Positions 3,947 to 57,427 of a DNA stretch of 64,000 nt are shown here, in pieces (within the stretch, counting starts at the first letter, position 1; every line of letters starts with the position of its first letter). The DNA is from Pedobacter sp. (lineage in GTDB: Bacteria > Desulfobacterota > Desulfuromonadia > Desulfuromonadales > Syntrophotaleaceae). A program made the position numbers and the translations under genes. Below the pieces are notes generated by a model, which was not told the origin of the DNA, did not search any database, and was given only the letters and a program-made list of their open reading frames with translations. The DNA is taken from the NCBI GenBank assembly GCA_050253415.1, contig JBFWJC010000002.1, positions 128,001-192,000 on the forward strand, given 5' to 3'.

Positions 3947-6040
3947 GTGAAACCCTTGAACATTGCCGTGATATGGCATATGCATCAGCCCGACTACCGG
4001 GATCCCTTGCAGGATGAAGTGCTGCTTCCGTGGGCTTTTCTGCACGCGGTAAAGGATTACGGGGATATGCTGCAGGTCGCCCTTGATCATGGTGCCCGCG
4101 TGACCTTTAACCTGGTTCCTACTCTCGTGGAGCAGTTGCAGGGGTATGCCTCCGGTACCTTGCGTGATCGTTGGATCGACCTCGCAAGCCGGGATCCCGA
4201 GGCCTTCGGTGATGGGGAGCGGGCCTTTCTGGTGGAGGCGTTTTTTTCCGTTCACGCCGAGCGGCACATACAGCCTTATGCCCGCTATCGTGAGTTGGCG
4301 ACGCTGCGTGAGCTGGGGGACGGCTTTGCCTGGCAGCGGTTTTCAGTCCAGGACCTGCGCGATTTGCAGGTCTGGTTTTTACTGGCCTGGGCAGGGCATT
4401 ATCTGCGCCAGGAATCAGCGGTGGTGAAGGATCTCCTGGTTAAAGGCAGGCATTTCGACGAGCAGGATAAACAGCGCTTACTGCAAACCTATCAGCAGGT
4501 TGTGCAGGGGATTCTCACTCGTTACCGGCAGGCTGAAACCGCTGCGTCGGTCGAGTTATCCGTGACGCCGTACGCGCATCCCATTTTGCCTTTGCTATGC
4601 GATACCAGCGAAGCTTCCCAGGCCCGGCCCGGCGTTCATCTGCCCGATACGCCTTTCCGCTTTCCGGAAGATGCCCGGCGTCATACCCGCTTGGGTTTGC
4701 AATGCGCGCGTGATGTTTTTGGCCCTGGCCAGCGTGGCGTCTGGCCGGCTGAAGGCGGATTAAGCGACGCGGCAGTGCGCATTCTGATTGAAGAGGGGGC
4801 GCGCTGGGCGGCCAGTGACGAAGCGCTGTTGGATAAATCATTGCCTGGCGGCCTGGGCGATCGCAGTCGCCTCTACCGATCCTACAGTCTGGCCGGGTTG
4901 CCGCTGTTGTTCAGGGATCGGGAACTGTCGGATCGCATCGGATTTGTGTATGCTTCCTGGCCTGCACGGGATGCGGCGGCTGACCTGCTTGAGCGTCTGC
5001 GGGCGTTGGCAAAGCAGGCGCCGGGCGGTCTGGTGGCTTTGATTCTGGATGGGGAAAACTGCTGGGAACGTTACGAGGACAACGGCTATCCCTTTTTGAA
5101 GGCCTTTTATCAGGGGATTGCAGACGATCCGGTGTTGCAGACCGTTACTGTCAGCGAGGCGCTGGCAGAGCATAAACCCGAGCCCCTGCCACGTTTGGCG
5201 CCCGGCTCCTGGATTAATGGCGATTTTGATGTCTGGATCGGGCATCCGGAGGAAAACCGGGCCTGGGAATGGTTGGGAGAGGCGCGGCGTGCGCTACAGG
5301 AAGTGGATGACGATCTGCGGGCGACAGCCTTGCCGCACCTGTTGAGGGCCGAAGGCAGTGACTGGTTCTGGTGGTTTGGCGAACATCACCAGACCCAGCA
5401 GGCCGGTACCTTCGATCAGCTGTTCCGCCATCACTTGCAGGCTTTGTACCGCGCGGTGAAACGGCCGGTGCCGGGTTATCTCAGTTACCCTTTGCGGGCT
5501 CCGCAACGTCGCAGTCGCGTATGGGAGCCGACCAGCCTGGTGTGCCCGGTTATCGATGGTCAGGTTACCGATTATTTTGAGTGGCTGGGGGCAGGCAGTG
5601 TCGAGTTGGCTGCGGGCGGCGCCATGCACGATACCAGTTTCGATCTGGTGGGATTTTATTACGGGTATGATGAAAAATATTTTTATCTGCGGTTTGATTT
5701 TCGACAACCCATGGAGCGCTTGACCGGAGCGGGGGGGGAACTGTTTCTGCAGGTACAGACCGATTTCCCCTGGGTTGCCCGCCTGGTTGCAGGCTCTCAT
5801 CGCACGGTGGTTCGACGGGCCTCCGGGGAGGGTGGGGCCGTTTACGCTCCGGGAGCTTGTGCATCCGTTGCCGAACTGGCCCTGCCGTTGGACTTGCTGA
5901 AGCTTGCGCCAGGGGATCGCCTGATTCTGAGCTGGCAGTTGCTGTCCTCCGGCCGTGAATTGGCCCACTGGCCTTCTGACGGGCCGTTGACCTTGACCTA
6001 CTTTGGTACCGACCTGGATGTCCGGCAGTGGCCGCTCTGA
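3947..6040 (+). CDS. Glycoside hydrolase family 57 (amylopullulanase-like)
   Basis: WHMHQP, TPYAHPILPLL, GVWPAEG, LDGENCWE, AEGSDWFWW conserved GH57 regions. Confidence 0.9.
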   Translation: MKPLNIAVIWHMHQPDYRDPLQDEVLLPWAFLHAVKDYGDMLQVALDHGARVTFNLVPTLVEQLQGYASGTLRDRWIDLASRDPEAFGDGERAFLVEAFFSVHAERHIQPYARYRELATLRELGDGFAWQRFSVQDLRDLQVWFLLAWAGHYLRQESAVVKDLLVKGRHFDEQDKQRLLQTYQQVVQGILTRYRQAETAASVELSVTPYAHPILPLLCDTSEASQARPGVHLPDTPFRFPEDARRHTRLGLQCARDVFGPGQRGVWPAEGGLSDAAVRILIEEGARWAASDEALLDKSLPGGLGDRSRLYRSYSLAGLPLLFRDRELSDRIGFVYASWPARDAAADLLERLRALAKQAPGGLVALILDGENCWERYEDNGYPFLKAFYQGIADDPVLQTVTVSEALAEHKPEPLPRLAPGSWINGDFDVWIGHPEENRAWEWLGEARRALQEVDDDLRATALPHLLRAEGSDWFWWFGEHHQTQQAGTFDQLFRHHLQALYRAVKRPVPGYLSYPLRAPQRRSRVWEPTSLVCPVIDGQVTDYFEWLGAGSVELAAGGAMHDTSFDLVGFYYGYDEKYFYLRFDFRQPMERLTGAGGELFLQVQTDFPWVARLVAGSHRTVVRRASGEGGAVYAPGACASVAELALPLDLLKLAPGDRLILSWQLLSSGRELAHWPSDGPLTLTYFGTDLDVRQWPL

Positions 6041-39372: not shown

Positions 39373-39606
39373 ATGATCTACCGAGACTGTAAGACCTGTA
39401 AGCACAAAGGACGCTGTTCGTCTGAGTCGGACCATTGCCGCGAGTCTATGTTTGCCCATGGTAATCGTGTACCAGCTCCAGAATGTGGTGAGTATAGCCC
39501 GCGTTTTACTCGTGGTGTTGATGGCGTTATTGATCCTGCTCCCTCCCCGCGCCCCTCCCAATACGGGGACATCACCAGTATTAATCATGGAGGTTCGGCA
39601 TGTTGA
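39373..39606 (+). CDS. Small Cys-rich hypothetical protein
   Basis: CKTCKH..C; overlaps the next start. Confidence 0.45.
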   Translation: MIYRDCKTCKHKGRCSSESDHCRESMFAHGNRVPAPECGEYSPRFTRGVDGVIDPAPSPRPSQYGDITSINHGGSAC

Positions 39607-40205
39607 GTGTTCGTCTTGAGGGCCTTGATAAGGCTATGCGGATATTTGACGAACGAATCGTCAGTCGTGCAGCAAGCCAGACAATCAATGAGACGGTCCG
39701 TGGTGTTTGCACATCTACCAACAAAGAGATCCGCCAAGAGTGGAACGTCAAGTCTGCCGATCTCTCCAAAAAGTTACGGGCTATAAAGATGGCCCGAGCC
39801 ACAGACCTGGAAGGGATCGTCGAGGCACGCAGCACATCATTGAGCCTCAGTTATTTTGGTGCCAAGTCATATAGCGGCACCATGGTGCAGACAAGAACTG
39901 TTGGTAAGCGGTTGAAGCGGTCAAGCAGTCGAAGTGGTGTCTACGTGCAAATCAAGAGAGGCGAAGGCCAGACTCACAAGAAGAATGCCTTTATGACCGC
40001 AGTCAAGGCAGGCAAGGGGGGTGGCTATCACATCGGTGTGTTTGAGCGTGTGGGTAAATCACGTTTGCCCATCGTTGAACGTAAGGTCATCACCGTTGCC
40101 AGCATGTTCAACCAGGAGCCAGTGCAGCGCGTGGCAATCAAGACGATTGATGATGTCTTCCCCCGCAGGTTCAACCATCACATCGACAGGCTCATGTCAA
40201 AGTGA
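39600..40205 (+). CDS. Lambda gpZ-like minor tail/tail-completion protein
   Basis: Basic 201-aa protein with RAASQTIN, NAFM, GVFERVGKSRLPI motifs; GGAGG RBS. Confidence 0.7.
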   Translation: MLSVRLEGLDKAMRIFDERIVSRAASQTINETVRGVCTSTNKEIRQEWNVKSADLSKKLRAIKMARATDLEGIVEARSTSLSLSYFGAKSYSGTMVQTRTVGKRLKRSSSRSGVYVQIKRGEGQTHKKNAFMTAVKAGKGGGYHIGVFERVGKSRLPIVERKVITVASMFNQEPVQRVAIKTIDDVFPRRFNHHIDRLMSK

Positions 40206-46995: not shown

Positions 46996-47013
46996 CCGCC
47001 TACGGAGGAGTGA

Positions 47014-47253
47014 ATGAAGATCTGGTTTGTAGGAAAGCCGATTGTTGTTGATGGAGAAGAACTTGGCTGGATGCCGGAAGGGGCTTTTGAGACAGAAGAG
47101 GAGGCGGCGAAGGTTGCCACAGATGCCGAATTTATCGTACTGGCCGAGGTTGGAGGAAGATTTCCAGAAAAAGCCACAGATGCCGAAAAGCTGTATTACC
47201 CGAAACTGGAGCGGTGGGAGGATAGCGCCCTTTACAAGATGCGGAATCAGTAA
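47014..47253 (+). CDS. Cassette 1 hypothetical protein
   Basis: GGAGGAG RBS; flanked by GTTGTGC / GAACAAC. Confidence 0.75.
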   Translation: MKIWFVGKPIVVDGEELGWMPEGAFETEEEAAKVATDAEFIVLAEVGGRFPEKATDAEKLYYPKLERWEDSALYKMRNQ

Positions 47254-47255
47254 GG

Positions 47256-47330
47256 GAACAACGCCTGCCGATCAGCGGTGAACGAAGGAGCGCAGCGGAT
47301 GAGTTATCCGCTGCATGGGCCTTGTTAAAC
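47256..47330 (-). other. attC-like site 2
   Basis: GAACAAC...GATCAGCGG...GCGCAGC...CCGCTGCATG...GTTAAAC. Confidence 0.78.
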
Positions 47331-47350
47331 AGCCATAAGGAAATGGTCAA

Positions 47351-47737
47351 ATGACACGATTTAAATTTAGAGCATGGGACTCCGTGAACAAGGAAATGCT
47401 TGACGCAAATACTGGATGTTTTTTCTACGAAGAAGACAACGGTTTCCATTGTGGATACCTGGCTGGTGTCAACGCTCCTGCTGATGTTGCGGGGGATTGG
47501 GTTGAATGCCCTGTGATGCAATGGACCGGGATCCGTGACAAAAACGGCATCGAGATTTACGAGGGTGACATTGTAAACCTTGACACTCTTTGCAAATACG
47601 AAGGCGGTGGGACTATTTGGAGAATTAAGCCGCACAAGGTTGTTTTTGAACGCCAGAGATGGCTCCCGGATAGACTGTCGGAGTCTGAAATTATTGGCAA
47701 CATCTACGAACACCCTGAGCTGGTCGGGGCAGTTTAA
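47351..47737 (+). CDS. Cassette 2: YopX-family protein
   Basis: KFRAWD, MQWTGIRDKNG.EIYEGDIV, EIIGNIYEHPEL. Confidence 0.88.
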   Translation: MTRFKFRAWDSVNKEMLDANTGCFFYEEDNGFHCGYLAGVNAPADVAGDWVECPVMQWTGIRDKNGIEIYEGDIVNLDTLCKYEGGGTIWRIKPHKVVFERQRWLPDRLSESEIIGNIYEHPELVGAV

Positions 47738-47865
47738 CGCTTGAGATCACGGGATTGCGGAGGAAACTATGACAATTGATATGGATATGCCATTTGGCGA
47801 GTTTGCACGGAAACACCTTGATACCGGCGCGGGTAGCAATTCCGCTGTGGATCGACTGGTTAAAT
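47732..47865 (-). other. attC-like site 3 (contains RBS and start of cassette 3 gene)
   Basis: GTTTAAC-GCTTGA-GATCACGGGATTGC ... GCAATTCCGCTGTGGATC-GACTG-GTTAAAT. Confidence 0.8.
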
Positions 47866-48164
47866 CGCCGCCGGTAGTCTGCCTGTGCGGATCTACTCGT
47901 TTTTTCGATGCGTTCAGAGACGCGAATCGCGCCGAAACGATGGAGGGAAAGATCGTGCTTGCTCCCGGAGTGTTTGGCCATTGCGGCGATCCATTGACTG
48001 ACGACGATAAGTTGCGGCTAGATATTTTGCACTATTGGAAAATTGACCTGGCCGACGAGGTGCTTGTGCTCAATGTTGGCGGGTACATTGGCAGCAGCAC
48101 CCAAAACGAAATCGAGTATGCCAAGCGAACCGGGAAACCTGTGCGCTTTCTTGAGGCGATTTAA
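47769..48164 (+). CDS. Cassette 3: nucleoside 2-deoxyribosyltransferase-like fold protein
   Basis: VCLCGSTRF, KIDLADEVLVLNVGGYIGSST..EIEYAK..GKPV. Confidence 0.7.
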   Translation: MTIDMDMPFGEFARKHLDTGAGSNSAVDRLVKSPPVVCLCGSTRFFDAFRDANRAETMEGKIVLAPGVFGHCGDPLTDDDKLRLDILHYWKIDLADEVLVLNVGGYIGSSTQNEIEYAKRTGKPVRFLEAI

Positions 48165-48218
48165 CGACTTAGTATGAGCGCGCCTGCGTAGCAGGTCCGC
48201 TCGATGCGCTGGTTCTAA
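48159..48218 (-). other. attC-like site 4
   Basis: ATTTAAC...TATGAGCG-CGCCTGCGTAGCAGGTC-CGCTCGATG-CGCTG-GTTCTAA. Confidence 0.82.
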
Positions 48219-48252
48219 AGGGTTTTCGCGCTCGGCGAAGCCGATAGGGGGT

Positions 48253-49110
48253 TTGATTGTGGGTTTATTTGAGACAACAGAAGAAGAACTGTACCAGATC
48301 GCCATAAGTCGGCCGCTTGAAGAGAAGATTGATCAGGCAATCTCTCTTATCCAGGCGACTGAAGGCCAAGCGTTGAAATTATCTGATGATGGCTTTTACG
48401 TCTGCTTTTCTGGGGGGAAAGACAGCATTGTCATGGCTCGGTTGTTTGAGATGGCCGGTGTTAAATTTGGCCTACATTACAACAATGTGACAATCGATCC
48501 TCCCGAACTGGTTCGGTTTATCAAGGAAGAATATCCCCATGCGGAATGGCATTCTGTCGGCAAGCACCTGATCAACTACATGGCCGAAGACAAGGTTTGC
48601 GGTCCCCCAACGCGGCTAATTCGCTGGTGTTGCGAGATTTACAAAGAGCAAGGTGGGGTTGATAAATTCCGGGCAATAGGGGTGAGGGCCGAAGAGTCCG
48701 CCAGGCGGAAGGGGTTGTGGAAGCAGATTACCACTGACAGGAAAACGAAGATGCCGATTTTATGCCCCATTTTGTATTGGACACATGCCGACATCTGGGC
48801 ATTCATCAAGCAGCATGACATGCCGTATTGCTGCTTGTATGACGAGGGTTTTGACCGCCTGGGCTGTGTCGGGTGCCCAATGGGAGGACCAAAAGGGCAA
48901 GCCCGCGATTTCGCCCGCTGGCCGAAATATGAAGCGATGTGGAAGCGTGGATTCAGGAAGTATTTTGACAAGTACAAGGGCGTTCCGAAGCGCAACGGGG
49001 AGCCTCGGGCAATCGAAAAATTCCCAACCGTAGACGACCTGTGGAATTGGTGGATAAGCGGCAAAGCCTATGAAGGCGACAATCCGGATTGCCAACTGTG
49101 GCTGTGGTAG
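48253..49110 (+). CDS. Cassette 4: PAPS-reductase-family (PP-loop) protein
   Basis: CFSGGKDS, RWCCEIYKE, GVRAEES..R, PILYWT..DIW, RLGCVGCP. Confidence 0.88.
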   Translation: MIVGLFETTEEELYQIAISRPLEEKIDQAISLIQATEGQALKLSDDGFYVCFSGGKDSIVMARLFEMAGVKFGLHYNNVTIDPPELVRFIKEEYPHAEWHSVGKHLINYMAEDKVCGPPTRLIRWCCEIYKEQGGVDKFRAIGVRAEESARRKGLWKQITTDRKTKMPILCPILYWTHADIWAFIKQHDMPYCCLYDEGFDRLGCVGCPMGGPKGQARDFARWPKYEAMWKRGFRKYFDKYKGVPKRNGEPRAIEKFPTVDDLWNWWISGKAYEGDNPDCQLWLW

Positions 49111-49128
49111 GTTTTGCGCGAAAAGACT

Positions 49129-49230
49129 TTAGAACGATCATGGTCAGCGACGGTGTGAGAACGGACGCGCCGCACCGACCTAAACGAGAATCGCCGCAGG
49201 TCTTCCGTTCGCTGGACCTGCTGGTTAGAT
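49129..49230 (-). other. attC-like site 5
   Basis: TTAGAAC-GATCAT-GGTCAGCGACGG ... CCGTTCGCTGGACC-TGCTG-GTTAGAT; two unpaired bases (T, G) on the right arm. Confidence 0.85.
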
Positions 49231-49250
49231 TTCTTTCTATAGAGGAACTT

Positions 49251-49451
49251 ATGAAACCTAAATGCCCACATTGCGATCACCAGTTTGATGACGACCAAGT
49301 TTGGCACGGAAGCAACAACTGCGAATTCCCAACCGAGCGCGACGGTGATACGGGGGAATTCGACTGCCCGATCTGCGGGAAGCCGCTGTATGTTCGTATT
49401 GAATTCACCCCCGCATGGTACTTCACCGACGATAACGGCATTGAAATCTAA
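49251..49451 (+). CDS. Cassette 5: small Zn-finger protein
   Basis: MKPKCPHC...DCPICG; GAGG RBS. Confidence 0.75.
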   Translation: MKPKCPHCDHQFDDDQVWHGSNNCEFPTERDGDTGEFDCPICGKPLYVRIEFTPAWYFTDDNGIEI

Positions 49452-49531
49452 TAACAAAGATCAGCGGCGAAGGAGGCCGTAGCCTATGAAACTGAAGCGT
49501 TTATTTCGTCCGCTGTATTGGCTGGTTATGC
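49446..49531 (-). other. attC-like site 6 (left box ATCTAAT is degenerate; contains RBS and start of cassette 6 gene)
   Basis: ATCTAAT-AACAAA-GATCAGCGGCGAA ... TTCGTCCGCTGTATT-GGCTG-GTTATGC. Confidence 0.78.
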
Positions 49532-49695
49532 GCTGCACTGGAACTATTTATTTGGAACCTGGCCTTAGAGTAACCACTTCTGGCTGGGTGATTATTTCTG
49601 ACGGGAAATCGAAAGATGCTTTGCCTATCAGCCTCGTCTCGCAAGAGATTGTGGATAAGGTGGAAGCCAGTTTGGCAAGTTGGGGTTACACATAA
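49486..49695 (+). CDS. Cassette 6 hypothetical protein
   Basis: AGGAGG RBS inside the attC; stop TAA lies in the ACATAAC box. Confidence 0.65.
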   Translation: MKLKRLFRPLYWLVMRCTGTIYLEPGLRVTTSGWVIISDGKSKDALPISLVSQEIVDKVEASLASWGYT

Positions 49696-49744
49696 CGACT
49701 AGCTGACCGAGAGCGCAGCGATTCGGTCGAGCGGCTTGTTGTAA
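49690..49744 (-). other. attC-like site 7 (55 bp)
   Basis: ACATAAC-GACTA-GCTGACCG-AGAGCGCAGCGATT-CGGTCGAGC-GGCTT-GTTGTAA. Confidence 0.88.
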
Positions 49745-49756
49745 TGCGAGGGACCT

Positions 49757-50020
49757 ATGAAAAAGAACCGATTGGCCGCAAAGGAGTGGCGCGAAGAAGA
49801 TCAACGGAAAAAGAAGCAAGCTGAAGACATTGAGTACGCCACAAGCAAAACATACGACGCAGAAAAGCGCATCCGTGGCTTGAGTGCAACAATCGAGTAT
49901 GCCGGGCATCCAGAAATCGCAGAAAAGGTAGAGTCTGCGAGGTTGCTATTAGCAGAATCTTACGAAAATCTGCAAGCAATACAACGACTAGCTGACCGAG
50001 AGCGCAGCGATTCGGTCTAG
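49757..50020 (+). CDS. Cassette 7 hypothetical coiled-coil protein
   Basis: GAGG RBS; reads into attC8. Confidence 0.7.
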   Translation: MKKNRLAAKEWREEDQRKKKQAEDIEYATSKTYDAEKRIRGLSATIEYAGHPEIAEKVESARLLLAESYENLQAIQRLADRERSDSV

Positions 50021-50033
50021 CGGCTTGTTAGAC
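49979..50033 (-). other. attC-like site 8 (55 bp, near-identical to site 7)
   Basis: ATACAAC-GACTA-GCTGACCG-AGAGCGCAGCGATT-CGGTCTAGC-GGCTT-GTTAGAC. Confidence 0.88.
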
Positions 50034-50048
50034 ATTAAATAAAGGAGC

Positions 50049-50243
50049 ATGAAAATGTTGATTACGTTTAAAGCAAGATGCCCTGAGTGCGGAGTGGATG
50101 GAAAACACACAGTGGAAATAGGACAAGACCTGCACCCGAAGAAGGTACTTCTTTGCGACACGGAAGTTGGAGGATGCGACTGTTATTTCGCAGCATTTAT
50201 AAACATAAGGGCCGAAGCTGAAACGGCAAAGATAGATGTCTAA
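50049..50243 (+). CDS. Cassette 8: small Cys-rich protein
   Basis: AAGGAG RBS; CPEC...LCD..GGC; stop lies in the GTCTAAC box. Confidence 0.75.
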   Translation: MKMLITFKARCPECGVDGKHTVEIGQDLHPKKVLLCDTEVGGCDCYFAAFINIRAEAETAKIDV

Positions 50244-50351
50244 CAGAGGTAACAATGGAAAATTTTCCACTTATCACCACGATTAAAGCCAAAAAGTGGA
50301 AAACAGCCGTCAACAAATGACAACAGCCAAATGACAAAGGACACCCCCTGA

Positions 50352-51101
50352 ATGTTCCAGCGCGCCCAACAACTCATCGACGTTGCCAGCCAGCACCAAA
50401 AAGCCGAACTGGTCACACTGCACAACGCCGTGCTCGAACGCATGGAAGCCTACAAGAAGGCCAGCACCGCCGCCAACAAGCGCGACTGGGCCGCCGCCAA
50501 AAAAGGCCTGCAGGAGTGCATCGACCAACTCTTGCCGGTGTACTTCCCCGAGCTGTCCGCCGCCGACCCGGAGGTGTTCGACACCCAAAAAGCCGCCCTC
50601 GCCTGGCTGCACAACCACTTCGGCAAACCGTACCCGTCCGCCGGCAAGTTCAGCCAGGATATCCGTGACGGGCTGTGCCTGCAGCAGCAGAACAAAACCA
50701 TCCTGCGCAAGGATCTCAAAAAATACGCCGAGGTCATCGGCCATGACAAGCAGGCCGCCGCCGCCTCGGCCAGCCAAGCCGAAAAACGCGAAAAGCTCGA
50801 AATCGAAAAGCTGGAGCTGGATGTCGAAAAACGCCGGATGGAAAACCGCAAGGAGGACAAAAACTGGATCGCCCGCGACACCGTCTTCGAACGCGAAGGC
50901 GCCCTTGTCGGTCAGATCATGGGCGAAGCCCGCCATCACCTCGGCCGCGCCGTACCCGCCGTGATCCATGCCGCCAAAGGCGACCCCGAGCGCACCCCGG
51001 AGATCAAAAAAATTATCGAAGAAGCCCTGTTCGACGCCTTCCGCTCCCTGTATGAATCCGGCGAAGTCGACATGACCTTTTTGCAAGAAGAAGAGGACTG
51101 A
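50352..51101 (+). CDS. Probable terminase small subunit
   Basis: Coupled (TGATG) to the large terminase; central coiled coil EKREKLEIEKLELDVEKRRME as in Nu1-like proteins. Confidence 0.6.
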   Translation: MFQRAQQLIDVASQHQKAELVTLHNAVLERMEAYKKASTAANKRDWAAAKKGLQECIDQLLPVYFPELSAADPEVFDTQKAALAWLHNHFGKPYPSAGKFSQDIRDGLCLQQQNKTILRKDLKKYAEVIGHDKQAAAASASQAEKREKLEIEKLELDVEKRRMENRKEDKNWIARDTVFEREGALVGQIMGEARHHLGRAVPAVIHAAKGDPERTPEIKKIIEEALFDAFRSLYESGEVDMTFLQEEED

Positions 51102-53077
51102 TGCAAACCGCCCTGGCCGCCGACATCTTTGCCCAGCCCCTGCCCGAGTTTTTCCCCGAGCAGCTGCGCCACGCCTGCAGCGGTAAACGCATCCGCTACA
51201 CGCTGCCGCGCTCCGTGCGCGAACGCATGCAAATACCCGAAGACATCACCGTCAGCCAATGGGCCGAAAAATACCGCCGCGTCACCGCCATCGACGCCGA
51301 GCCAGGCCGCTGGCGCATCGACCGCGTCCCCCACACCAAAAAACTCATGGACATGATCAGCCTGCCGTGGGTCAAGGAATTCTGGCTGTGCATGGTCGAG
51401 CGCGCCGCCAAAACCCAGATAGTGCTCAACGCCGCCTGCCGTCAGATCGACCGCGGCATAGACTCCGGCAACGTATTTTGGCTCATGCCAAGCGAAGCCG
51501 ACGCCAAAAAAGCCCTCAGCGAACGCATCATACCCGTACTCAAAGAGAGCCCCCGCATGGCTCGGCTGCTGTCGCGCTACGCCGACGACACCACCAGCAC
51601 CAAGATCCGCTTTAAACACGGACCGCGCCTGTTTCCCGCCTGGTCCAACAGCCCCGGCTCCATCGCCTCGTTTTACGGCAAGCTCAACATCGGCGATGAG
51701 ATCGACAAATACGGCGACCGCTCCGGCGGCGAAACCGACCCCATTACCCTGCTCAAAAAACGCGGCCGCGACAGCGACGAATCCAAATTCCTGTTTGCCA
51801 GCACCCCCGCCGGTAAATTTATATACAAAGGCACCATGGCCTGCCAGCAAGTCTGGACCTACAAAAACCGCTGCCCCCATTGCGGTGAATACATCCTGAT
51901 GGACGCCGATCATTTCATGCTACCCGAAGGCGCCACCCAGGAGACCATCAAACACGGCGAGCACCCCGTCACCTACGCCTGCAACGACTGCGGCGTAGAA
52001 TGGGACGAAACCGACCGCAAAACCGCCTACCAAAACGGCGACTGGTTCGCCATCAAAGGCGCCGATGTCGAGCGGCCCACCACCATCGGAGCCTGGTTGC
52101 CGGCCTTCCCGCTGCCCAACATCCCCATGGCCGAGATCGGCGCCGCCATCGCCCGCGCCAACACCGGAGATCTCGCCGGTAAGATGGACCTCGCCCACGG
52201 CTATAAAGCCGTCGACTACGAAGCCGAAAACAAAGACCGGCAAGAAGACGCCATCCTGCTGCTGCGCGACGACCGCCCGGCAGGCATGATCCCCACCGAA
52301 GCCAACGGCCTCGAAATATCCATCGACACCCAGGATAACGGCTTCTGGTATCGCATCCGCGCCTGGCGTTACGGCCTCGATCTCAAAAGCTGGCTTGTCA
52401 AAGCCGGATATGTGCCCAGTGCCAACGCCGCCGACTTTGCCGCCCTCGATGATCTCATCGCGGCCGAATACCCCGACACCAACGGCGAGCCCCACCGCAT
52501 TATGGCCGGCATCATCGACAGCGCCGGGCATCGCACCAGCGAAGTCTACGCCTGGTGCCGCCGCACCGGAATCATACCAGCCAAAGGTGCCCAAGGCCGC
52601 AAGACCCAGCCCGTCACCGTCAGCCGCATCGACCGTTTCCCCGGTGACAACAAACCGATCCCCGGCGGCCTCAACCTCTACCATATCGACACGCATTTTC
52701 ACAAAGACCAACTCGCCAACAAACTGCAGATCGACCCCTCCGATCCCGGCGCCCTGGTGCTGCACAGCGGCTATAGCCTTGACCAGCTCACAGCCCTGCA
52801 CCGCGATCCAAACGGTAAACAAGCCCACAACCTGGAGGAATACGCCCGCCAGATGTGCGTCGAATACCGCGACGAGCGCGGCCTGTGGCAATGCCCCGAC
52901 GGCAAAGCCAATCACCTGTGGGATTGTGAAAACAACGGCCTCGCCCTGGTCATGTACCTGGGTTGGCAGCACAAAGGCAGCGTAAAAAAGAAGCCCGCCA
53001 CCAACGGACTCAAACCCAAAGACACCGCACCAGCCGCCACCAGCCGCGACCTTCCGGCATGGTATCGCAACCGCTAA
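51101..53077 (+). CDS. Terminase large subunit, lambda GpA family
   Basis: TVSQWAEKYR, GDEIDKY, FASTP, CPHCG/CNDCG, IDTQ, IDSAG, NHLWDC. Confidence 0.9.
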   Translation: MQTALAADIFAQPLPEFFPEQLRHACSGKRIRYTLPRSVRERMQIPEDITVSQWAEKYRRVTAIDAEPGRWRIDRVPHTKKLMDMISLPWVKEFWLCMVERAAKTQIVLNAACRQIDRGIDSGNVFWLMPSEADAKKALSERIIPVLKESPRMARLLSRYADDTTSTKIRFKHGPRLFPAWSNSPGSIASFYGKLNIGDEIDKYGDRSGGETDPITLLKKRGRDSDESKFLFASTPAGKFIYKGTMACQQVWTYKNRCPHCGEYILMDADHFMLPEGATQETIKHGEHPVTYACNDCGVEWDETDRKTAYQNGDWFAIKGADVERPTTIGAWLPAFPLPNIPMAEIGAAIARANTGDLAGKMDLAHGYKAVDYEAENKDRQEDAILLLRDDRPAGMIPTEANGLEISIDTQDNGFWYRIRAWRYGLDLKSWLVKAGYVPSANAADFAALDDLIAAEYPDTNGEPHRIMAGIIDSAGHRTSEVYAWCRRTGIIPAKGAQGRKTQPVTVSRIDRFPGDNKPIPGGLNLYHIDTHFHKDQLANKLQIDPSDPGALVLHSGYSLDQLTALHRDPNGKQAHNLEEYARQMCVEYRDERGLWQCPDGKANHLWDCENNGLALVMYLGWQHKGSVKKKPATNGLKPKDTAPAATSRDLPAWYRNR

Positions 53078-53087
53078 GGAGACCACC

Positions 53088-53306
53088 ATGACACCACCGC
53101 AAATATACCGCCGCAAAGACATGCTCACCGTCGCCCAATTCGCCAAAGTCATCGGCATGAGCCGTAGTTTTGCCTATCAACTGGTCGAGCGCGGACCGCA
53201 AGAAGGCGGCGTTCTGGCGTTTCGTTATGGCAAGACAAAAGGGCTTAGGGTGCCGGCGGAAGAGGTGACGCGATATCAGCAGGAGAGAAAGGTTGTTGAG
53301 GTATAA
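53088..53306 (+). CDS. Small winged-HTH (excisionase/HTH_17-like) protein
   Basis: MLTVAQFAKVIGMSRSFAYQLVERG...LRVPAEEV; AAGGAG RBS. Confidence 0.8.
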   Translation: MTPPQIYRRKDMLTVAQFAKVIGMSRSFAYQLVERGPQEGGVLAFRYGKTKGLRVPAEEVTRYQQERKVVEV

Positions 53307-53360
53307 CGGATTTGAGGTGTGCGGCGAGCGTAGCGAGTCCACACCAGCGAAGGGTTATGA
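53301..53360 (-). other. attC-like site 9 (solo cassette)
   Basis: GTATAAC-GGATTT-GAGGTGTG...GAGCGTAGCGA...CACACCAGC-GAAGG-GTTATGA. Confidence 0.75.
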
Positions 53361-54187
53361 TGCCCATGCAGAAACAGCGAATCATACGGGTTTTTCCGAG
53401 ACGGACAGCGGCCACGCCAGATGATGATCTGGTGAGGATCGCCACAACGCCCGGCCTCTTTGACGAAGCCGATGAAGTGCATGTGTCGGTGACGTTTACT
53501 TGGGATTTACCCCTTGTCGAAAAACTGGCGAAAGCCTGGGAGCCGGTGGCTCCTGTGACGATCGGAGGCCCGGCGACGGGAGAAGCTGGGGGGGATTTTA
53601 CCCCTGGCTTGTACGTCAAAAAAGGCTACGTACTCACCTCTCGCGGCTGCCCGAACAACTGCTGGTTTTGTTCCGTGCCAAAACGTGAAGGCCCGTTGCG
53701 GGAATTGCCGATCACCGAAGGCTGGAACGTCCTCGATGACAACTTGTTGGCATGCTCTGACGATCATGTCCGGAGAGTGTTCGAGATGCTGTATGGCCAG
53801 AAGAAAAACGGACGGATTCAATTTACTGGCGGACTGGAAGCTGCCCGCCTCAAACCCTGGCACGTTGAAGCCCTGCGGGGATTGAGGCCGAAACAGATGT
53901 TCTTTGCGTACGACACGCCCGACGATCTGGAACCGCTGCAGGACGCTGGTAGGATGCTGTTGGATGCTGGCTTTACGATCACAAGTCACGCCCTTCGGGC
54001 CTATGTGTTGTGCGGCTGGCCGAAGGATAGTTTTGAGGCGGCAGGCCGCAGGATGCAACAAACGATAGACGCCGGTTTCATGCCGATGGCGATGCTTTAC
54101 CGTGGCGTAGCCGGCAAACGTGATACGGAGTGGATGCGCTGGCAACGGGAATGGGCGAGACCAGCCATAATTGCCAAGGCATCATAA
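53357..54187 (+). CDS. Cassette 9: radical SAM protein
   Basis: TSRGCPNNCWFC (CxxxCxxC), LDDNLLA; flanked by GTTATGA / TCATAAC. Confidence 0.85.
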   Translation: MMPMQKQRIIRVFPRRTAATPDDDLVRIATTPGLFDEADEVHVSVTFTWDLPLVEKLAKAWEPVAPVTIGGPATGEAGGDFTPGLYVKKGYVLTSRGCPNNCWFCSVPKREGPLRELPITEGWNVLDDNLLACSDDHVRRVFEMLYGQKKNGRIQFTGGLEAARLKPWHVEALRGLRPKQMFFAYDTPDDLEPLQDAGRMLLDAGFTITSHALRAYVLCGWPKDSFEAAGRRMQQTIDAGFMPMAMLYRGVAGKRDTEWMRWQREWARPAIIAKAS

Positions 54188-54262
54188 CATCCTTTAACCA
54201 GCCCACAATGACAGTTACCCATATAATTATTTTAGGCAAAACCGCAAAAACCTAAAAAAGTT

Positions 54263-54291
54263 GTCCACCACGTCCACCACGTCCACCACGT
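54263..54291 (+). repeat. (GTCCACCAC)x3 upstream of the head operon
   Basis: Three perfect 9-bp direct repeats about 40 bp before the gpW-like start. Confidence 0.85.
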
Positions 54292-54329
54292 ACATGACAA
54301 CCCCCACCCATGCGCCGTAATCTCGGCGC

Positions 54330-54575
54330 ATGGCTATTACCCCACTATACACATCCTCCGAGCTCGATGCCCTGATCGCCGCCTATAAGCAGGCCGAGAT
54401 GTCGCTCGCGTCCGGCGTCGCGGAATACACCATCGACGTAGGTGGTGGTCGCCGTACCGTGCGCCGCCGCGATCTGGCCGAGGTGCGCCAGGCCCTGCAA
54501 TACTACCAGGGGCAGCGCGTGCAACTCGCTACCGGCTCCGGCCCCCAAACCCTGGTGGGGAGACCGGTACGATGA
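54330..54575 (+). CDS. gpW-like head-tail joining protein
   Basis: 81 aa between terminase and portal; EYTID..GRRTVRRRDL. Confidence 0.75.
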   Translation: MAITPLYTSSELDALIAAYKQAEMSLASGVAEYTIDVGGGRRTVRRRDLAEVRQALQYYQGQRVQLATGSGPQTLVGRPVR

Positions 54576-56107
54576 GTGGTTGCCGCGTAGGGCGCAGCTA
54601 TCCCGCCGGCCGGTACCACGGCGGTCTTATCCCAAGCATCCAGGGCGCTTCCATTCGTCGCAGCTCCGGCGGCTACAGCGGAACTCTCTCCAACTGGTCG
54701 CCATCGCGCATGACCTGGCCCGAAGAAGGCCGCAACCGCGAAACCACCGTCGACCGCGCCAACGACCTCGCCGCCAACCATCCCCACGCCGCAAGCCTTG
54801 TCGACTCCATCACCGTCAACGCCGTCGGTCCCGGGCTGTGGCCGCAAAGCAAGCCACATTACGAGCGCCTTGGCTTGTCCGAGAGCTGGGCCACAGAGTT
54901 TGCCGGCGCCGCCGAGTGGGAATTGGAACAGTGGAACCGTGAAGCCGACGCCCGCGAAGTCACCGACTTTTACGGCAAACAGTTTCAAAACCTCTGGTCG
55001 ATGCTCGTCAACGGCGAATTTATCAACCTGCCTCTGATGCTCGATGATCCAGGACGCCGTTACCGACTCGCCCTGCAGGATATCGACCCCGTGCGCCTTC
55101 GTACCCCCATGGCCCTGTTCGGCGCCGCCGATATCCGCGACGGTATCCGACTCGGCGACCGTGGCCAGGCCAAAGGCTACTTCCTCGCAGATCCCGACGA
55201 CGGCCGCATTGTAAGCAGCCTCGACATGCGCCACTATCGCGAGCTACCCGCACGTATCGGCCACCGCCCGGTGGTCATGCACCGCTTCCACGCCAAAACC
55301 CCCGAGCAGGTGCGCGGCGTCAGCGTGCTGGCACCGGCCATGAAGTTCTTCCGCGATGTCTCCGACTACCTCGATTACGAGCTGGTCGGCGCCATCGTCG
55401 CCAGCAGCTTCCCGGTCTTCATCGAAAAAAACACCACTTACGATGCCACCCAATTGCCCGGTGTCGAGTCCGTACAAAACGCCACCGGCGATACCACCCA
55501 TTACCGCAACTACAGCCCCGGCCAGGTGCTGTACGGCAACGGCGCCGAAAAGCCCCATATCCTCAAAAGCGACCGCCCCGGCAACTCCTTCCCGGCGTTT
55601 ATCGAGACCATCCTGCGCGCCGTCGGTGCTGCCGCCGGCATGCCCTACGAGATCATCAGTAAAGACTTTTCCAAAACCAACTACTCCAGCGCCCGCGCCG
55701 CCCTGCAAGAAGCCTGGCGCGTGTTTGAGCTCTATCAGGATTGGCTGGTCGGCGGATTTTGTCAACCGGTGTGGGAGATGTTACTGGAAGAAGCCTTCCT
55801 GCGCGGTCGCCTGCCGATCCCCAAGGGCGCACCCGACTTTTACGCCGCCCGCGCCGAATATTGCGCCGCAACCTGGGTCGGCCCCGAGCGTACCAACGTC
55901 GATCCCGTCAAAGAGATGGTCGCCGACATCATGGGCCTTAACGCCAACGTGACCACCCAAGCCGATATCGCCGCCAAAAAAGGCAAAGACTGGGAGCAGC
56001 AGTTCAGACAGCGCTCCCGCGAGCGTCAGCTGGCAAGAGACCTAGACCTTAATCCGGATCCGCCGAGCACCAAAAAAGCCAAAGATCCGGCCACCGTATT
56101 GGAGTAG
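54572..56107 (+). CDS. Portal protein, lambda family
   Basis: EQVRGVSVLAP, GMPYE..SKDFS..NYSSARA, VDPVKE. Confidence 0.92.
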   Translation: MSGCRVGRSYPAGRYHGGLIPSIQGASIRRSSGGYSGTLSNWSPSRMTWPEEGRNRETTVDRANDLAANHPHAASLVDSITVNAVGPGLWPQSKPHYERLGLSESWATEFAGAAEWELEQWNREADAREVTDFYGKQFQNLWSMLVNGEFINLPLMLDDPGRRYRLALQDIDPVRLRTPMALFGAADIRDGIRLGDRGQAKGYFLADPDDGRIVSSLDMRHYRELPARIGHRPVVMHRFHAKTPEQVRGVSVLAPAMKFFRDVSDYLDYELVGAIVASSFPVFIEKNTTYDATQLPGVESVQNATGDTTHYRNYSPGQVLYGNGAEKPHILKSDRPGNSFPAFIETILRAVGAAAGMPYEIISKDFSKTNYSSARAALQEAWRVFELYQDWLVGGFCQPVWEMLLEEAFLRGRLPIPKGAPDFYAARAEYCAATWVGPERTNVDPVKEMVADIMGLNANVTTQADIAAKKGKDWEQQFRQRSRERQLARDLDLNPDPPSTKKAKDPATVLE

Positions 56108-56110
56108 CGC

Positions 56111-57427
56111 ATGCGCAACCTGCGAATCGCTGAAATGCTATTTAACCGTCCGCTGATGATCTCAGAGTCAAAGCTCAATGTGATTCTGCATATCCTCGGC
56201 CCCCGCCTCAATCTTGACCTTGGCGGCCTGCCGTCGCAACAACTGGCCGAGATCAGCGACCAGGACCGCGCCCGCGCAGGCTATCAGGTCAAAGGCAACA
56301 TCGGCATTGTCGGCATCCACGGCCCCCTCATGCACCGCCGTCTGGCCTCTCAATTCCCCAGCGGAGGCCCGACGACCTACGGCGAGATCCGCCGCGCCTT
56401 TGACATGGCCATGGCCGATGATGCCGTAGAGTCCATTATTTTGGATATCGACTCTCCCGGTGGTGAAGTCAGCGGCGTCTTTGACCTGGCGGATCACATC
56501 TATCAGGCCCGCAGCAGCAAGCCGAGCACCGCCATACTTAACGAGTCGGCCTTCTCCGCAGGTTATCTATTGGCCAGCAGCGCCGGACGCATTGTGATGC
56601 CCCGTACCGGCGGCGCCGGATCCATCGGGGTCATTGCCACCCATGCCGATTTTTCACGGGCGGAAGACGCCGCAGGAATCACCGTAACCCATGTTATCGC
56701 CGGCGCCAAAAAAGCCGATTTTTCCCCGCACCATCCTTTAAGCGAATCGGCTCTTGCCTCACTGCAAGCCATGGTAGACGACAGCTACGAAATGTTTGTC
56801 GATACCGTCGCCAGGAATCGAGGCATGACAACCAAGGCTGTGCGCGATACCGAAGCCGGTATTTTTGAAGGCAAAAAAGCCGTCGCAGCACGCCTTGCCG
56901 ACGAAATTTCCGCAGTAGATAAAGCCATCGCCCAGGCCGGTATGGCCAGAGGCAAAACCATGCTCCCCACTTCGGCCAGAGCCGTCGCGGGAAAGGAGAA
57001 CCGCGCCATGACACTTTTGGAACTCAGAGAAAAACACCCCGATCTGGTAGCCCAGATCGAAACCGAAGCCAGCGCCGGCATGATTACCCAGGCCGCCGCC
57101 GACACCGCCCGCGCCGAAGCCGTCACCGCTGAAAGCACCCGCGTTATGAGCCTGGTGCAAGCCGCCATCGGCGAAGAAGGTGCCGGGAAGATCCGCGCCG
57201 CCGCCGACAAAGGCCTCACCGCCGATGACCTGCAGGCCCTTGGCGTCAGCCTTGCCCCTGTCGCCACCGGCGATGCCGACCTTGCCACCCGTAATGCCAT
57301 GCTTGAAGGCATAACAGGCGCCGCTCCGGCCGCGTTGCGCACCGGCAACGCCGTCACCGGCGAAGCCGCCGAAGAGCAAGTCGTTACCAACGCTATCCTT
57401 GCCGGGGCCGCCGGTCGCCGCCAGTAA
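56111..57427 (+). CDS. S49-family prohead protease/scaffold (gpC/Nu3-like)
   Basis: LDIDSPGGEV, AFSAGYLLAS, GSIGV; Ala-rich C-terminus. Confidence 0.9.
   Translation: MRNLRIAEMLFNRPLMISESKLNVILHILGPRLNLDLGGLPSQQLAEISDQDRARAGYQVKGNIGIVGIHGPLMHRRLASQFPSGGPTTYGEIRRAFDMAMADDAVESIILDIDSPGGEVSGVFDLADHIYQARSSKPSTAILNESAFSAGYLLASSAGRIVMPRTGGAGSIGVIATHADFSRAEDAAGITVTHVIAGAKKADFSPHHPLSESALASLQAMVDDSYEMFVDTVARNRGMTTKAVRDTEAGIFEGKKAVAARLADEISAVDKAIAQAGMARGKTMLPTSARAVAGKENRAMTLLELREKHPDLVAQIETEASAGMITQAAADTARAEAVTAESTRVMSLVQAAIGEEGAGKIRAAADKGLTADDLQALGVSLAPVATGDADLATRNAMLEGITGAAPAALRTGNAVTGEAAEEQVVTNAILAGAAGRRQ

Follow-up and report, generated by a model that had tools for sequence, protein, structure and literature searches.

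What brought a lone radical S-adenosylmethionine (radical SAM) gene to a position between the terminase and head genes of a prophage, directly at the stop codon of an intact neighbour, with an attC-like site before it and none behind it? The gene lies in a 64,000-nt stretch of Pedobacter sp. DNA (assembly GCA_050253415.1, contig JBFWJC010000002.1, positions 128,001–192,000 of the forward strand), referred to here as the window. We consider that the segment 53307–54187, which holds the gene, is probably an integron-type cassette that was inserted, through recombination mediated by an integron integrase (IntI), at a GTT secondary site outside any integron. This reading starts from the observed anatomy of the unit, its homology to a unit beside a true IntI, the end points that the two share, its polarity and the phage lineage in which it occurs.

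Anatomy of the radical SAM unit and its viral counterpart

The open reading frame (ORF) is preceded by a 60-nt imperfect palindrome, GTATAAC...GTTATGA, in which a 5′ box (GTATAA/C) and a 3′ box (GTTATGA) enclose 5-nt spacers (GGATT and GAAGG) and a stem, GGTGTG/CACACC. Three further mismatched bases per side give a total of eight unpaired bases on each side of this 6-bp stem. The site resembles canonical attC sites, as far as the consulted part of Nivina et al. (2016; PMC5027507) describes them, in its paired AAC/GTT boxes, 5-nt spacers, stem, terminal loop, A/C cleavage point and stop codon inside a box; its length and its unpaired spacers of ∼5 nt also fall within the attC criteria (spacers of about 5–6 nt, 57–141 nt overall). 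It differs from them in the antisense orientation of the ORF, the lack of extrahelical bases and two deviations in each box. Read from the sequence, GTTATGA occupies 53354–53360, overlapping ATG codons at 53357 and 53360, and is the exact reverse complement of the TCATAAC 7-mer at the far end of the gene. The rear of the unit has no counterpart of the front site: the first 48 nt after TCATAAC form no fold and contain nothing like it.

To the left, a helix-turn-helix (HTH) gene ends GTA-TAA (stop codon at 53304–53306), and the insertion begins with the next base, C53307. The 5′ box GTATAA|C (53301–53307) is thus a hybrid of target and cassette (an R′ box). As integrated, GTATAAC and GTTATGA pair at five of seven positions; in a circular form, TCATAAC and GTTATGA would pair at all seven.

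An ORF whose product is 84% identical, together with its front site, is present in a viral contig (L001; L052 is the same contig). Likeness between this contig and the window is limited to 53307–54187: the left limit is C|ATTTGAGG, a single base ahead of ATTTGAGG, and the right limit is TCATAA|C. Within the front site ATTTGAGGT and AGCGAAGGGTTATGATGCC are conserved, and the intervening stem is made of different bases yet still pairs. A 103-nt attC site with paired boxes, 4-nt spacers and an extrahelical G follows the unit in L001; an integrase located ∼850 bp beyond reaches 327.4 bits against TIGR02249, the model for integron integrases, whose cut-off is 265. Because the homologous unit lies in an array beside a true IntI, we attribute an integron origin to the radical SAM unit. 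Direct reading of the L001 front-site homologue gave extrahelical bases; an unconstrained fold gave no such hairpin. Other homologues of the gene (in L003, L004, L025, L104, L106 and L107) are preceded by GTTAGAT or GTTAGAC, and those in L003, L004, L106 and L107 end in TAAC boxes of the type GTCTAAC, the contig of L025 stopping within the ORF. The downstream DNA of the window, L001 and L003 diverges from TAA|C onward, as does that of L004 by direct reading.

The GC skew switches at both ends of the segment. Within 53307–54187 the GC and AT skews are +0.12 and +0.04, whereas they are −0.13 and +0.33 in the small terminase subunit gene (TerS), −0.21 and +0.26 in the large subunit gene (TerL), and −0.15 and +0.11 in the portal gene. 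The 142-nt spacer to the right of the segment has a GC skew of −0.48, and the first 43 bp of it are C-rich like the phage and unlike the cassette.

A preliminary description of this locus had singled out the same motifs, the perfect 7/7 brackets and an attC-like site in front with none after. It had also noted that the junction falls at the HTH stop codon without disrupting that gene, and that the radical SAM segment lacks the C/A bias of its neighbours. These features are all present, with positions as given or within one base, and the HTH gene is indeed intact when compared with relatives' versions of 72–73 amino acids (70% identity). The view that this is a separate cassette insertion in the packaging module, with the ends named there, is likewise upheld by the L001 unit beside its true IntI.

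What lifts the insertion above chance is comparative evidence, not the statistics of the bracket or the fold. By chance, each ORF should have 0.027 inverted repeats of 7 nt linking its start and stop windows; 2 of 98 mechanically called ORFs of at least 150 amino acids had one, and the bracket by itself is therefore only mildly unusual. The region before the gene might have nothing to do with integrons: it could be the 5′ end of a longer gene starting at TTG 53312, or a regulatory 5′ leader hairpin, with the bracket arising by chance at the rate just given. That TTG is in frame, as is its equivalent in L001 (with a 6-nt length difference), Shine–Dalgarno-like bases precede both, and the RNA fold of the front region mildly beats shuffled sequences (z −1.89). 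However, the translated extension is poorly conserved while the stem pairs with different bases. Most homologues are 266–290 amino acids long and start near MMP or MR, and the Atlas record starts at residue 3 of the 275-residue form. Moreover, the L001 unit stands among canonical attC sites beside its integrase, and three sites of the window's own upstream array (E, B and C) have the same layout. We regard an origin of this kind as very improbable.

Polarity of the cassettes and possible source of the integrase

In the consulted part of the published description, the recombining bottom strand of attC reads 5′-RYYYAA|C, a spacer, a stem with an extrahelical T in the 3′ arm, a 6-bp stem, an extrahelical G in L″, a 5–6-nt spacer and GTTRRRY, with cleavage between A and C (PMC5027507). 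On its plus strand, site E of the window has a T, a 6-bp stem, a G, a 5-nt spacer and GTTAGAT, which is this bottom-strand layout; sites B and C have one extrahelical G or T each, in the 3′ arm. Polarity was tested with a constrained fold and two controls, the host integron and Shewanella phage M16-3. On the ORF strand, the bulges lay in the 5′ arm at all five host integron sites and at three sites of M16-3 (three ties, none opposite); they lay in the 3′ arm at the three sites of the relative G040, at the single site of the relative L142 and at the true L001 site. Window sites E, B and C, read from their own folds, likewise have bulged bases in the 3′ arm of the ORF strand. Two further site calls in L001 were false, being inside the radical SAM ORF. 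Two home-made attC scanners missed known host sites and picked up palindromes in coding sequence, and were used only with controls.

The cassette ORFs of the host diverge from its intI. L001, G040 and L142 have the array 5′ of intI, the usual arrangement, but there the ORFs are co-directional with intI. The bulge arms and the placement of intI together indicate that the integrase/attC geometry is canonical and that the ORFs are antisense. On the ORF strand, a cassette would thus read C + attC + ORF...TAA, which for the radical SAM unit gives 881 bp. A site in front and none behind is then expected, because the ORF lies on the attC bottom strand and the site before it belongs to the cassette itself. 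The 7/7 bracket would have the same explanation, since the R″ box and the first six cassette bases would pair perfectly in the excised circle (R′ = G+TTATGA against TCATAAC).

In the reaction that we propose, IntI would recombine the folded attC of a circular cassette with a minus-strand GTT triplet (AA/C on the plus strand). This triplet would overlap the TAA stop of the HTH gene, within an accessory hotspot between TerL–HTH and the gpW-like gene. The target, ...GAGGTATAA|CATCCTTT... (GGTATAA|CATCC), reads G|TT on the minus strand and fits the GWT motif. Such an event would leave the HTH gene intact and attC before the new gene, with GTATAA|C as the hybrid R′ box at the left junction and TCATAA|C at the right one. 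The radical SAM gene would now be expressed by read-through of the late operon; a consensus scan of 52900–54700 gave no promoter-like sites and one minus-strand terminator-like site, inside TerL. As its attC is without extrahelical bases, the cassette is probably now fixed in place.

Isolated cassettes outside integrons, termed SALINs, and a GWT consensus at IntI insertions outside att sites are described in the consulted part of a preprint on attC × attG recombination (Loot et al., bioRxiv 10.1101/2022.09.11.507474). The radical SAM insert is like these in having one attC and one ORF, with no integrase in the 64-kb window and no other attC near (the nearest, site C, is 3.3 kb off, across TerS and TerL). 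Its target also fits GWT (here GTT) outside an essential gene, and expression from a neighbouring promoter is possible. It differs in that the recipient is a prophage packaging module, the attC stands before the gene because the ORF is on its bottom strand, this attC has no extrahelical bases, and the case is built on sequence analysis. A 2024 version of the attC × attG work reportedly appeared in Nature Microbiology, according to another paper's reference list.

The joining enzyme could have been the host chromosomal IntI (447.6 bits, no internal stops; G000:C1:1750302–1759659, L051). An IntI borne by a phage ancestor of the prophage is more likely, because L142 has IntI and an array in the interval that holds the window's array. 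TerS and TerL of L142 are 74% and 78% identical in amino acid sequence to those of the window, its IntI (415 bits) ends 10 bp before TerS, and a G-skewed array lies upstream of IntI, at the interval where the window has an array but no IntI. G040 (G040:C3, L135) and L001 also carry IntI next to TerS. In L187 (1650–7278), IntI and a G-skewed accessory region lie between TerL and a gpW-like gene, which is the hotspot of the window. The window's array is ∼3 kb upstream of the radical SAM cassette and has the same polarity; relatives carry IntI where the window has this array, and the earlier pairing of two loci of like polarity stands. No copies of five window elements were found elsewhere in the host genome, and these elements are therefore neither a genome-wide repeat nor of the host array's attC type. 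The host integron is itself ordinary, with at least 8 kb of cassettes running to the contig end and a 300-bp exact duplication; its array has two attC sequence types, unrelated to the prophage sites.

A search of IMG/VR with a profile of three IntI proteins gave 181 relatives, from which 80 loci were kept (L136–L215). In 25 of these 80, some of them on near-duplicate contigs, intI is followed on its own strand by the start of a gpA-type TerS or TerL; the distance is at most about 330 bp in 24 and 1.3 kb in the other, L137, where no TerS was detected. The viral IntI proteins tested were all above the TIGR02249 cut-off (7 of 7, 383–465 bits). In the 3 kb upstream of intI, plus-strand coding exceeded minus-strand coding at 36 of 46 loci by mechanical ORF calls, and at 11 terminase-linked loci 16 of the 42 ORFs on the plus strand end in TAAC, compared with 2 of the 16 on the minus strand. 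Shewanella phage M16-3 was tried as a member of the same group and rejected, as it is P2-like with the usual ORF orientation. In the GenBank genome of Virus Rctr41k (KX853513, L134) an integrase-like protein annotated as 'xerD' (4680–5678), one of the seven tested, scores 383 bits as an integron integrase, and ten small same-strand ORFs lie upstream of it.

Whether the prophage belongs to a widespread, undescribed group of gpA-terminase phages that own an integron as a standing module, and seed single cassettes such as the radical SAM unit elsewhere, is in our view an evenly balanced question. If it does, intI is placed upstream of and co-directional with TerS and, in at least one phage, between TerL and gpW. 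As the cassette ORFs lie on the attC bottom strand, antisense to the Pc direction, array, intI and packaging genes would be read together by phage transcription. Accessory genes, for DNA modification and probably for countering defences, would be shuffled by such a phage integron while the phage replicates lytically and single-stranded DNA abounds. The usual view of integrons is of bacterial devices in which a promoter next to the integrase drives the cassettes; the genes in these arrays face the wrong way for that classical promoter and the right way for phage transcription. To our knowledge, examples of phage integrons have so far been few and mostly resemble captured host pieces. If the proposal is true, phages have a cassette economy of their own, cassettes have a direct route between cells, and the agreement of cassette genes with the attC top strand, taken as a rule, has a systematic exception. 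The window itself gives a clean natural case of a probable cassette outside any integron, in an essential phage operon, without harm.

The only relevant paper that we found on phage integrons, a phrase search otherwise giving unrelated papers, is that of Qi et al. (2023, Front Microbiol; PMC9892861). Its consulted text reports three complete integrons and 17 integrase-less cassette arrays (CALINs) in 10,705 phage genomes, some of these elements being captured pieces of host integrons. They share attC sites, arrays, sometimes IntI and DNA-modification cargo with the loci described here. They differ in that Shewanella M16-3 has the usual ORF orientation, whereas here IntI is next to TerS and the ORFs are on the intI strand. 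The main text uses 'terminase' once, for the flanks of the Shewanella CALIN, and names neither Rctr41k nor KX853513, although the supplements may list members. The isolated cassette, the attG-type insertion and phage CALINs are thus of a known kind; what appears to be new is the antisense polarity of the ORFs, along with phage integrons linked to terminase genes.

The insertion site and the case for ordinary phage exchange

The right third of the window is a lambda-like head module on the plus strand. Beyond the gpW-like gene lie a lambda-family portal, an S49 protease, a gpD-like decoration protein and a gpE-like capsid protein, and the lambda order (TerS, gpA TerL, gpW, portal, S49 protease, gpD, gpE) is broken by the HTH and radical SAM genes. 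An HTH homologue follows TerL in L040, L035, L033, L041, L136, L157, L222 and G040, and by gene order an HTH gene immediately behind TerL is a native feature of the group. In G040 just 60 bp separate it from the gpW-like gene, which is followed by the portal. Although the whole HTH gene is conserved in relatives, its 3′ half (53191–53306) has a GC skew of +0.41 against −0.24 in the 5′ half, so that the switch in composition seems to begin ∼115 bp before the cassette end point.

Of the relatives found, L040 is the closest (TerL 82% and portal 85% identical in amino acid sequence); it matches the window over 50389–53243 and 54229–56126 at 79–81% DNA identity. DNA likeness to L040 and L035 ceases at the HTH stop codon. 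From there to a conserved block before gpW, L040 has 1.8 kb of other DNA with two minus-strand ORFs, one of them SocA/Panacea. Other cargo at this place includes an SNF2 helicase block (L136/L219), a C5 methylase (L157), an N6/N4 methylase (L143), another radical SAM gene (L144) and, in L033, a ParB-like ORF followed by one that is methyltransferase-like by eye only, with no family scan. This variety makes the site between TerL–HTH and gpW a general accessory-gene hotspot, filled by other routes too. The L040 cargo was considered as a cassette and rejected, as its ends are not at TAA|C; the L001 cargo between HTH and gpW was rejected as a second cassette array, being tightly packed with genes and showing no attC-like spacers. 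On the minus strand of L040 (7225–8818), a 301-residue protein with a SocA/Panacea antitoxin domain overlaps a 263-residue protein matching no known family, and the two may form a toxin–antitoxin or defence pair.

Such a site could also have received the gene and its hairpin by ordinary moron exchange, that is, by illegitimate or homologous phage recombination with no IntI acting here, the donor perhaps being a phage integron array. Morons are defined by their own promoter and terminator. The unit is like a moron in being an extra gene of foreign composition between late genes, at a place where relatives have other cargo; it is unlike one in that no promoter or terminator of its own was found by the consensus scan of 52900–54700, and in that its ends are those of a recombination site.

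A number of points weigh against an insertion by IntI, and several of them favour exchange of this sort. The 64-kb window contains no IntI. Unrelated non-cassette cargo occupies the same hotspot in relatives (the SocA/Panacea pair of L040, the SNF2 block, and the contents of L157, L143, L144 and L033), and likeness to L040 restarts at 54229, 41 bp to the right of the predicted breakpoint at 54188. The front site is a poor attC: the consensus RYYYAAC/GTTRRRY is matched only in part, both GTTATGA (T in place of R, A in place of Y) and TCATAAC departing from it twice, and no extrahelical bases occur in 53301–53360, where there is a single extra C on the opposite arm. Its DNA fold (−6.6 kcal/mol, z 0.12) was equalled or bettered by 105 of 200 shuffles. 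An Rfam search of 47000–55000 with E up to 10 gave two weak unrelated matches, though Rfam may hold no attC model. The front site is common to just one independent comparator, L001, whose left junction is GA|C and not AA|C, and the TAAC stop context is absent from 67 of 77 non-redundant loci of radical SAM homologues. Neither an empty junction, GGTATAA|CATCCTTTAAC, nor a circle junction, TCATAA|CGGATTTGAGG, was seen in public-run contigs. A portal-based search of 30 loci gave no co-linear empty HTH–gpW junction near enough to align. Finally, the genome is a metagenome bin, a weak point, though the window lies within an 806-kb contig.

One public run contains the whole stretch and is probably the source sample; a further run of that study contains a third of the sampled words and another almost none, and no RNA data set was listed as containing the stretch. 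A public-run contig of 16 kb spans the insertion; the joints listed have sides of 21–52 nt at unrelated places, with none at 53306/54188. A 22-nt right-flank pattern had no matches in viral contigs, and a TerL search of genome contigs found no relative. The preliminary description had inferred an active, repeatable mechanism, and proposed looking for related prophages with the empty junction and folding the front site. Pattern scan and portal search produced no such relative, the DNA fold does no better than shuffled sequence, and the missing IntI, the attC without extrahelical bases, the hybrid R′ box and the lack of circle or empty-site junctions give activity no support. Its interpretation is therefore largely right as to an integron-type cassette insertion of shared polarity, and a mechanism still at work is not supported.

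Moron exchange is harder to reconcile with the end points. Both ends are exactly at TAA/C, the cleavage point of the attC bottom strand, and likeness to L001 stops at the same two points. In composition, the adjoining 43 bp on the right side match the C-rich phage and not the cassette. A random breakpoint would rarely spare the HTH stop codon and also yield a 7/7 pair of R boxes on circularization. We judge exchange without IntI to be unlikely, and insertion by IntI remains our preferred account.

The radical SAM product and other features of the region

The coordinates of the features discussed are collected in Table 1.

Table 1. Features of the prophage region, in window coordinates
Feature	Position	Strand	Remarks
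CALIN-type cassette array	47738–50243	+	No integrase; upstream of TerS; five units; GC skew +0.14
attC A	48159–48218	+	Followed by PAPS reductase ORF, 48253–49110
attC E	49129–49230	+	Followed by two small ORFs
attC B	49690–49744	+	Followed by 87-residue ORF reading through the cassette boundary into site C
attC C	49979–50033	+	Followed by 64-residue zinc-ribbon-like ORF ending GTCTAA/C (50238–50244)
TerS candidate	50352–51101	+	
TerL, gpA-type	51101–53077	+	
HTH_17/excisionase-like gene	53088–53306	+	72 residues; Pfam HTH_17, 27.3 bits
attC-type site, read as its bottom strand	53301–53360	+	Sequence, fold, homologous site in L001
Inferred cassette, 881 bp	53307–54187	+	C53307 to final A of the radical SAM stop codon; both ends TAA/C
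Radical SAM gene	53360–54187	+	275 residues; alternative in-frame starts ATG 53357, ATG 53366, TTG 53312
TCATAAC	54182–54188	+	Last six cassette bases and first target base; contains the radical SAM stop TAA, 54185–54187
C-rich spacer	54188–54230	+	Presumed native phage DNA right of the insertion; unmatched in relatives; unfolded
Conserved structured block	54231–54329	+	Upstream of gpW, outside the cassette; fold z −4.66, three hairpins
gpW-like adaptor	54330–54575	+	

The radical SAM gene is single-copy in the host genome. Its product has a CxxxCxxC cluster motif, and all 42 aligned homologues keep its C97, C101 and C104. The protein matches PHROG 9298 ('radical SAM domain protein', E 4e-17), scores 23.5 bits on Pfam Radical_SAM, below the cut-off of 29.5, and has a single 17-bit partial match in NCBIfam, to a B12/radical SAM lipid enzyme. 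An AlphaFold model built on the 42-sequence alignment (mean predicted local distance difference test score, pLDDT, 89.7) shows a Rossmann-like domain at the N terminus, together with a partial TIM barrel. The nearest solved folds found by Foldseek are the B12-type radical SAM methylases MgmA, TsrM, CysS and TokK, the methylthiotransferases RimO and MiaB, and AprD4, with E from 3e-8 to 2e-3 and template-modelling scores of 0.5–0.63 on the query; MgmA, RimO, AprD4, TsrM and MiaB are at 3e-8 to 1e-5. The protein is much shorter than these structural matches.

The family is very large, with at least 6,745 relatives at E ≤ 0.001 among 8,000 scored candidates; its Atlas clusters are 67–100% viral, and relatives in named phage genomes are all at most 31% identical. 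Most homologues are ordinary phage genes beside terminases, DNA methylases, polymerases and replication genes. From these neighbours in other phages we would guess, with low confidence, at nucleic-acid modification that aids the phage against host restriction. So large an uncharacterized family, with mostly viral clusters, is mobile cargo worth assaying.

The first unit of the upstream array is a 131-residue ORF with no family assigned. Sites B and C share a 47-bp repeat at 98% identity, and public contigs break there. An element of ∼30 nt, TAACGCTTGAG...GGATTGCGGAGG, occurs at 47735–47770 of the window and at L135:9205–9250 in the G040 array; in both it lies after a stop codon and before the next ORF, and it is too short for an attC.

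The structured block upstream of gpW holds three tandem GTCCACCAC units at 54263–54289. A scan of viral contigs for this triple of 9-mers gave one match, in an unrelated giant-virus bin. The block is conserved in L217/L040, L219 and L218, and partly in L220, L228, L229 and L234; in these last four, ∼50 bp of it are 78–87% identical while the portals are 50–70% identical. As it is conserved beyond the proteins, the block is a candidate regulatory or packaging-related DNA site.

Outside the head module, an ORF with a lambda gpZ-like minor tail domain (39600–40205) lies upstream of the primase and replication genes, far from the tail genes expected beyond 59 kb, and may be a second phage remnant or the result of a rearrangement.

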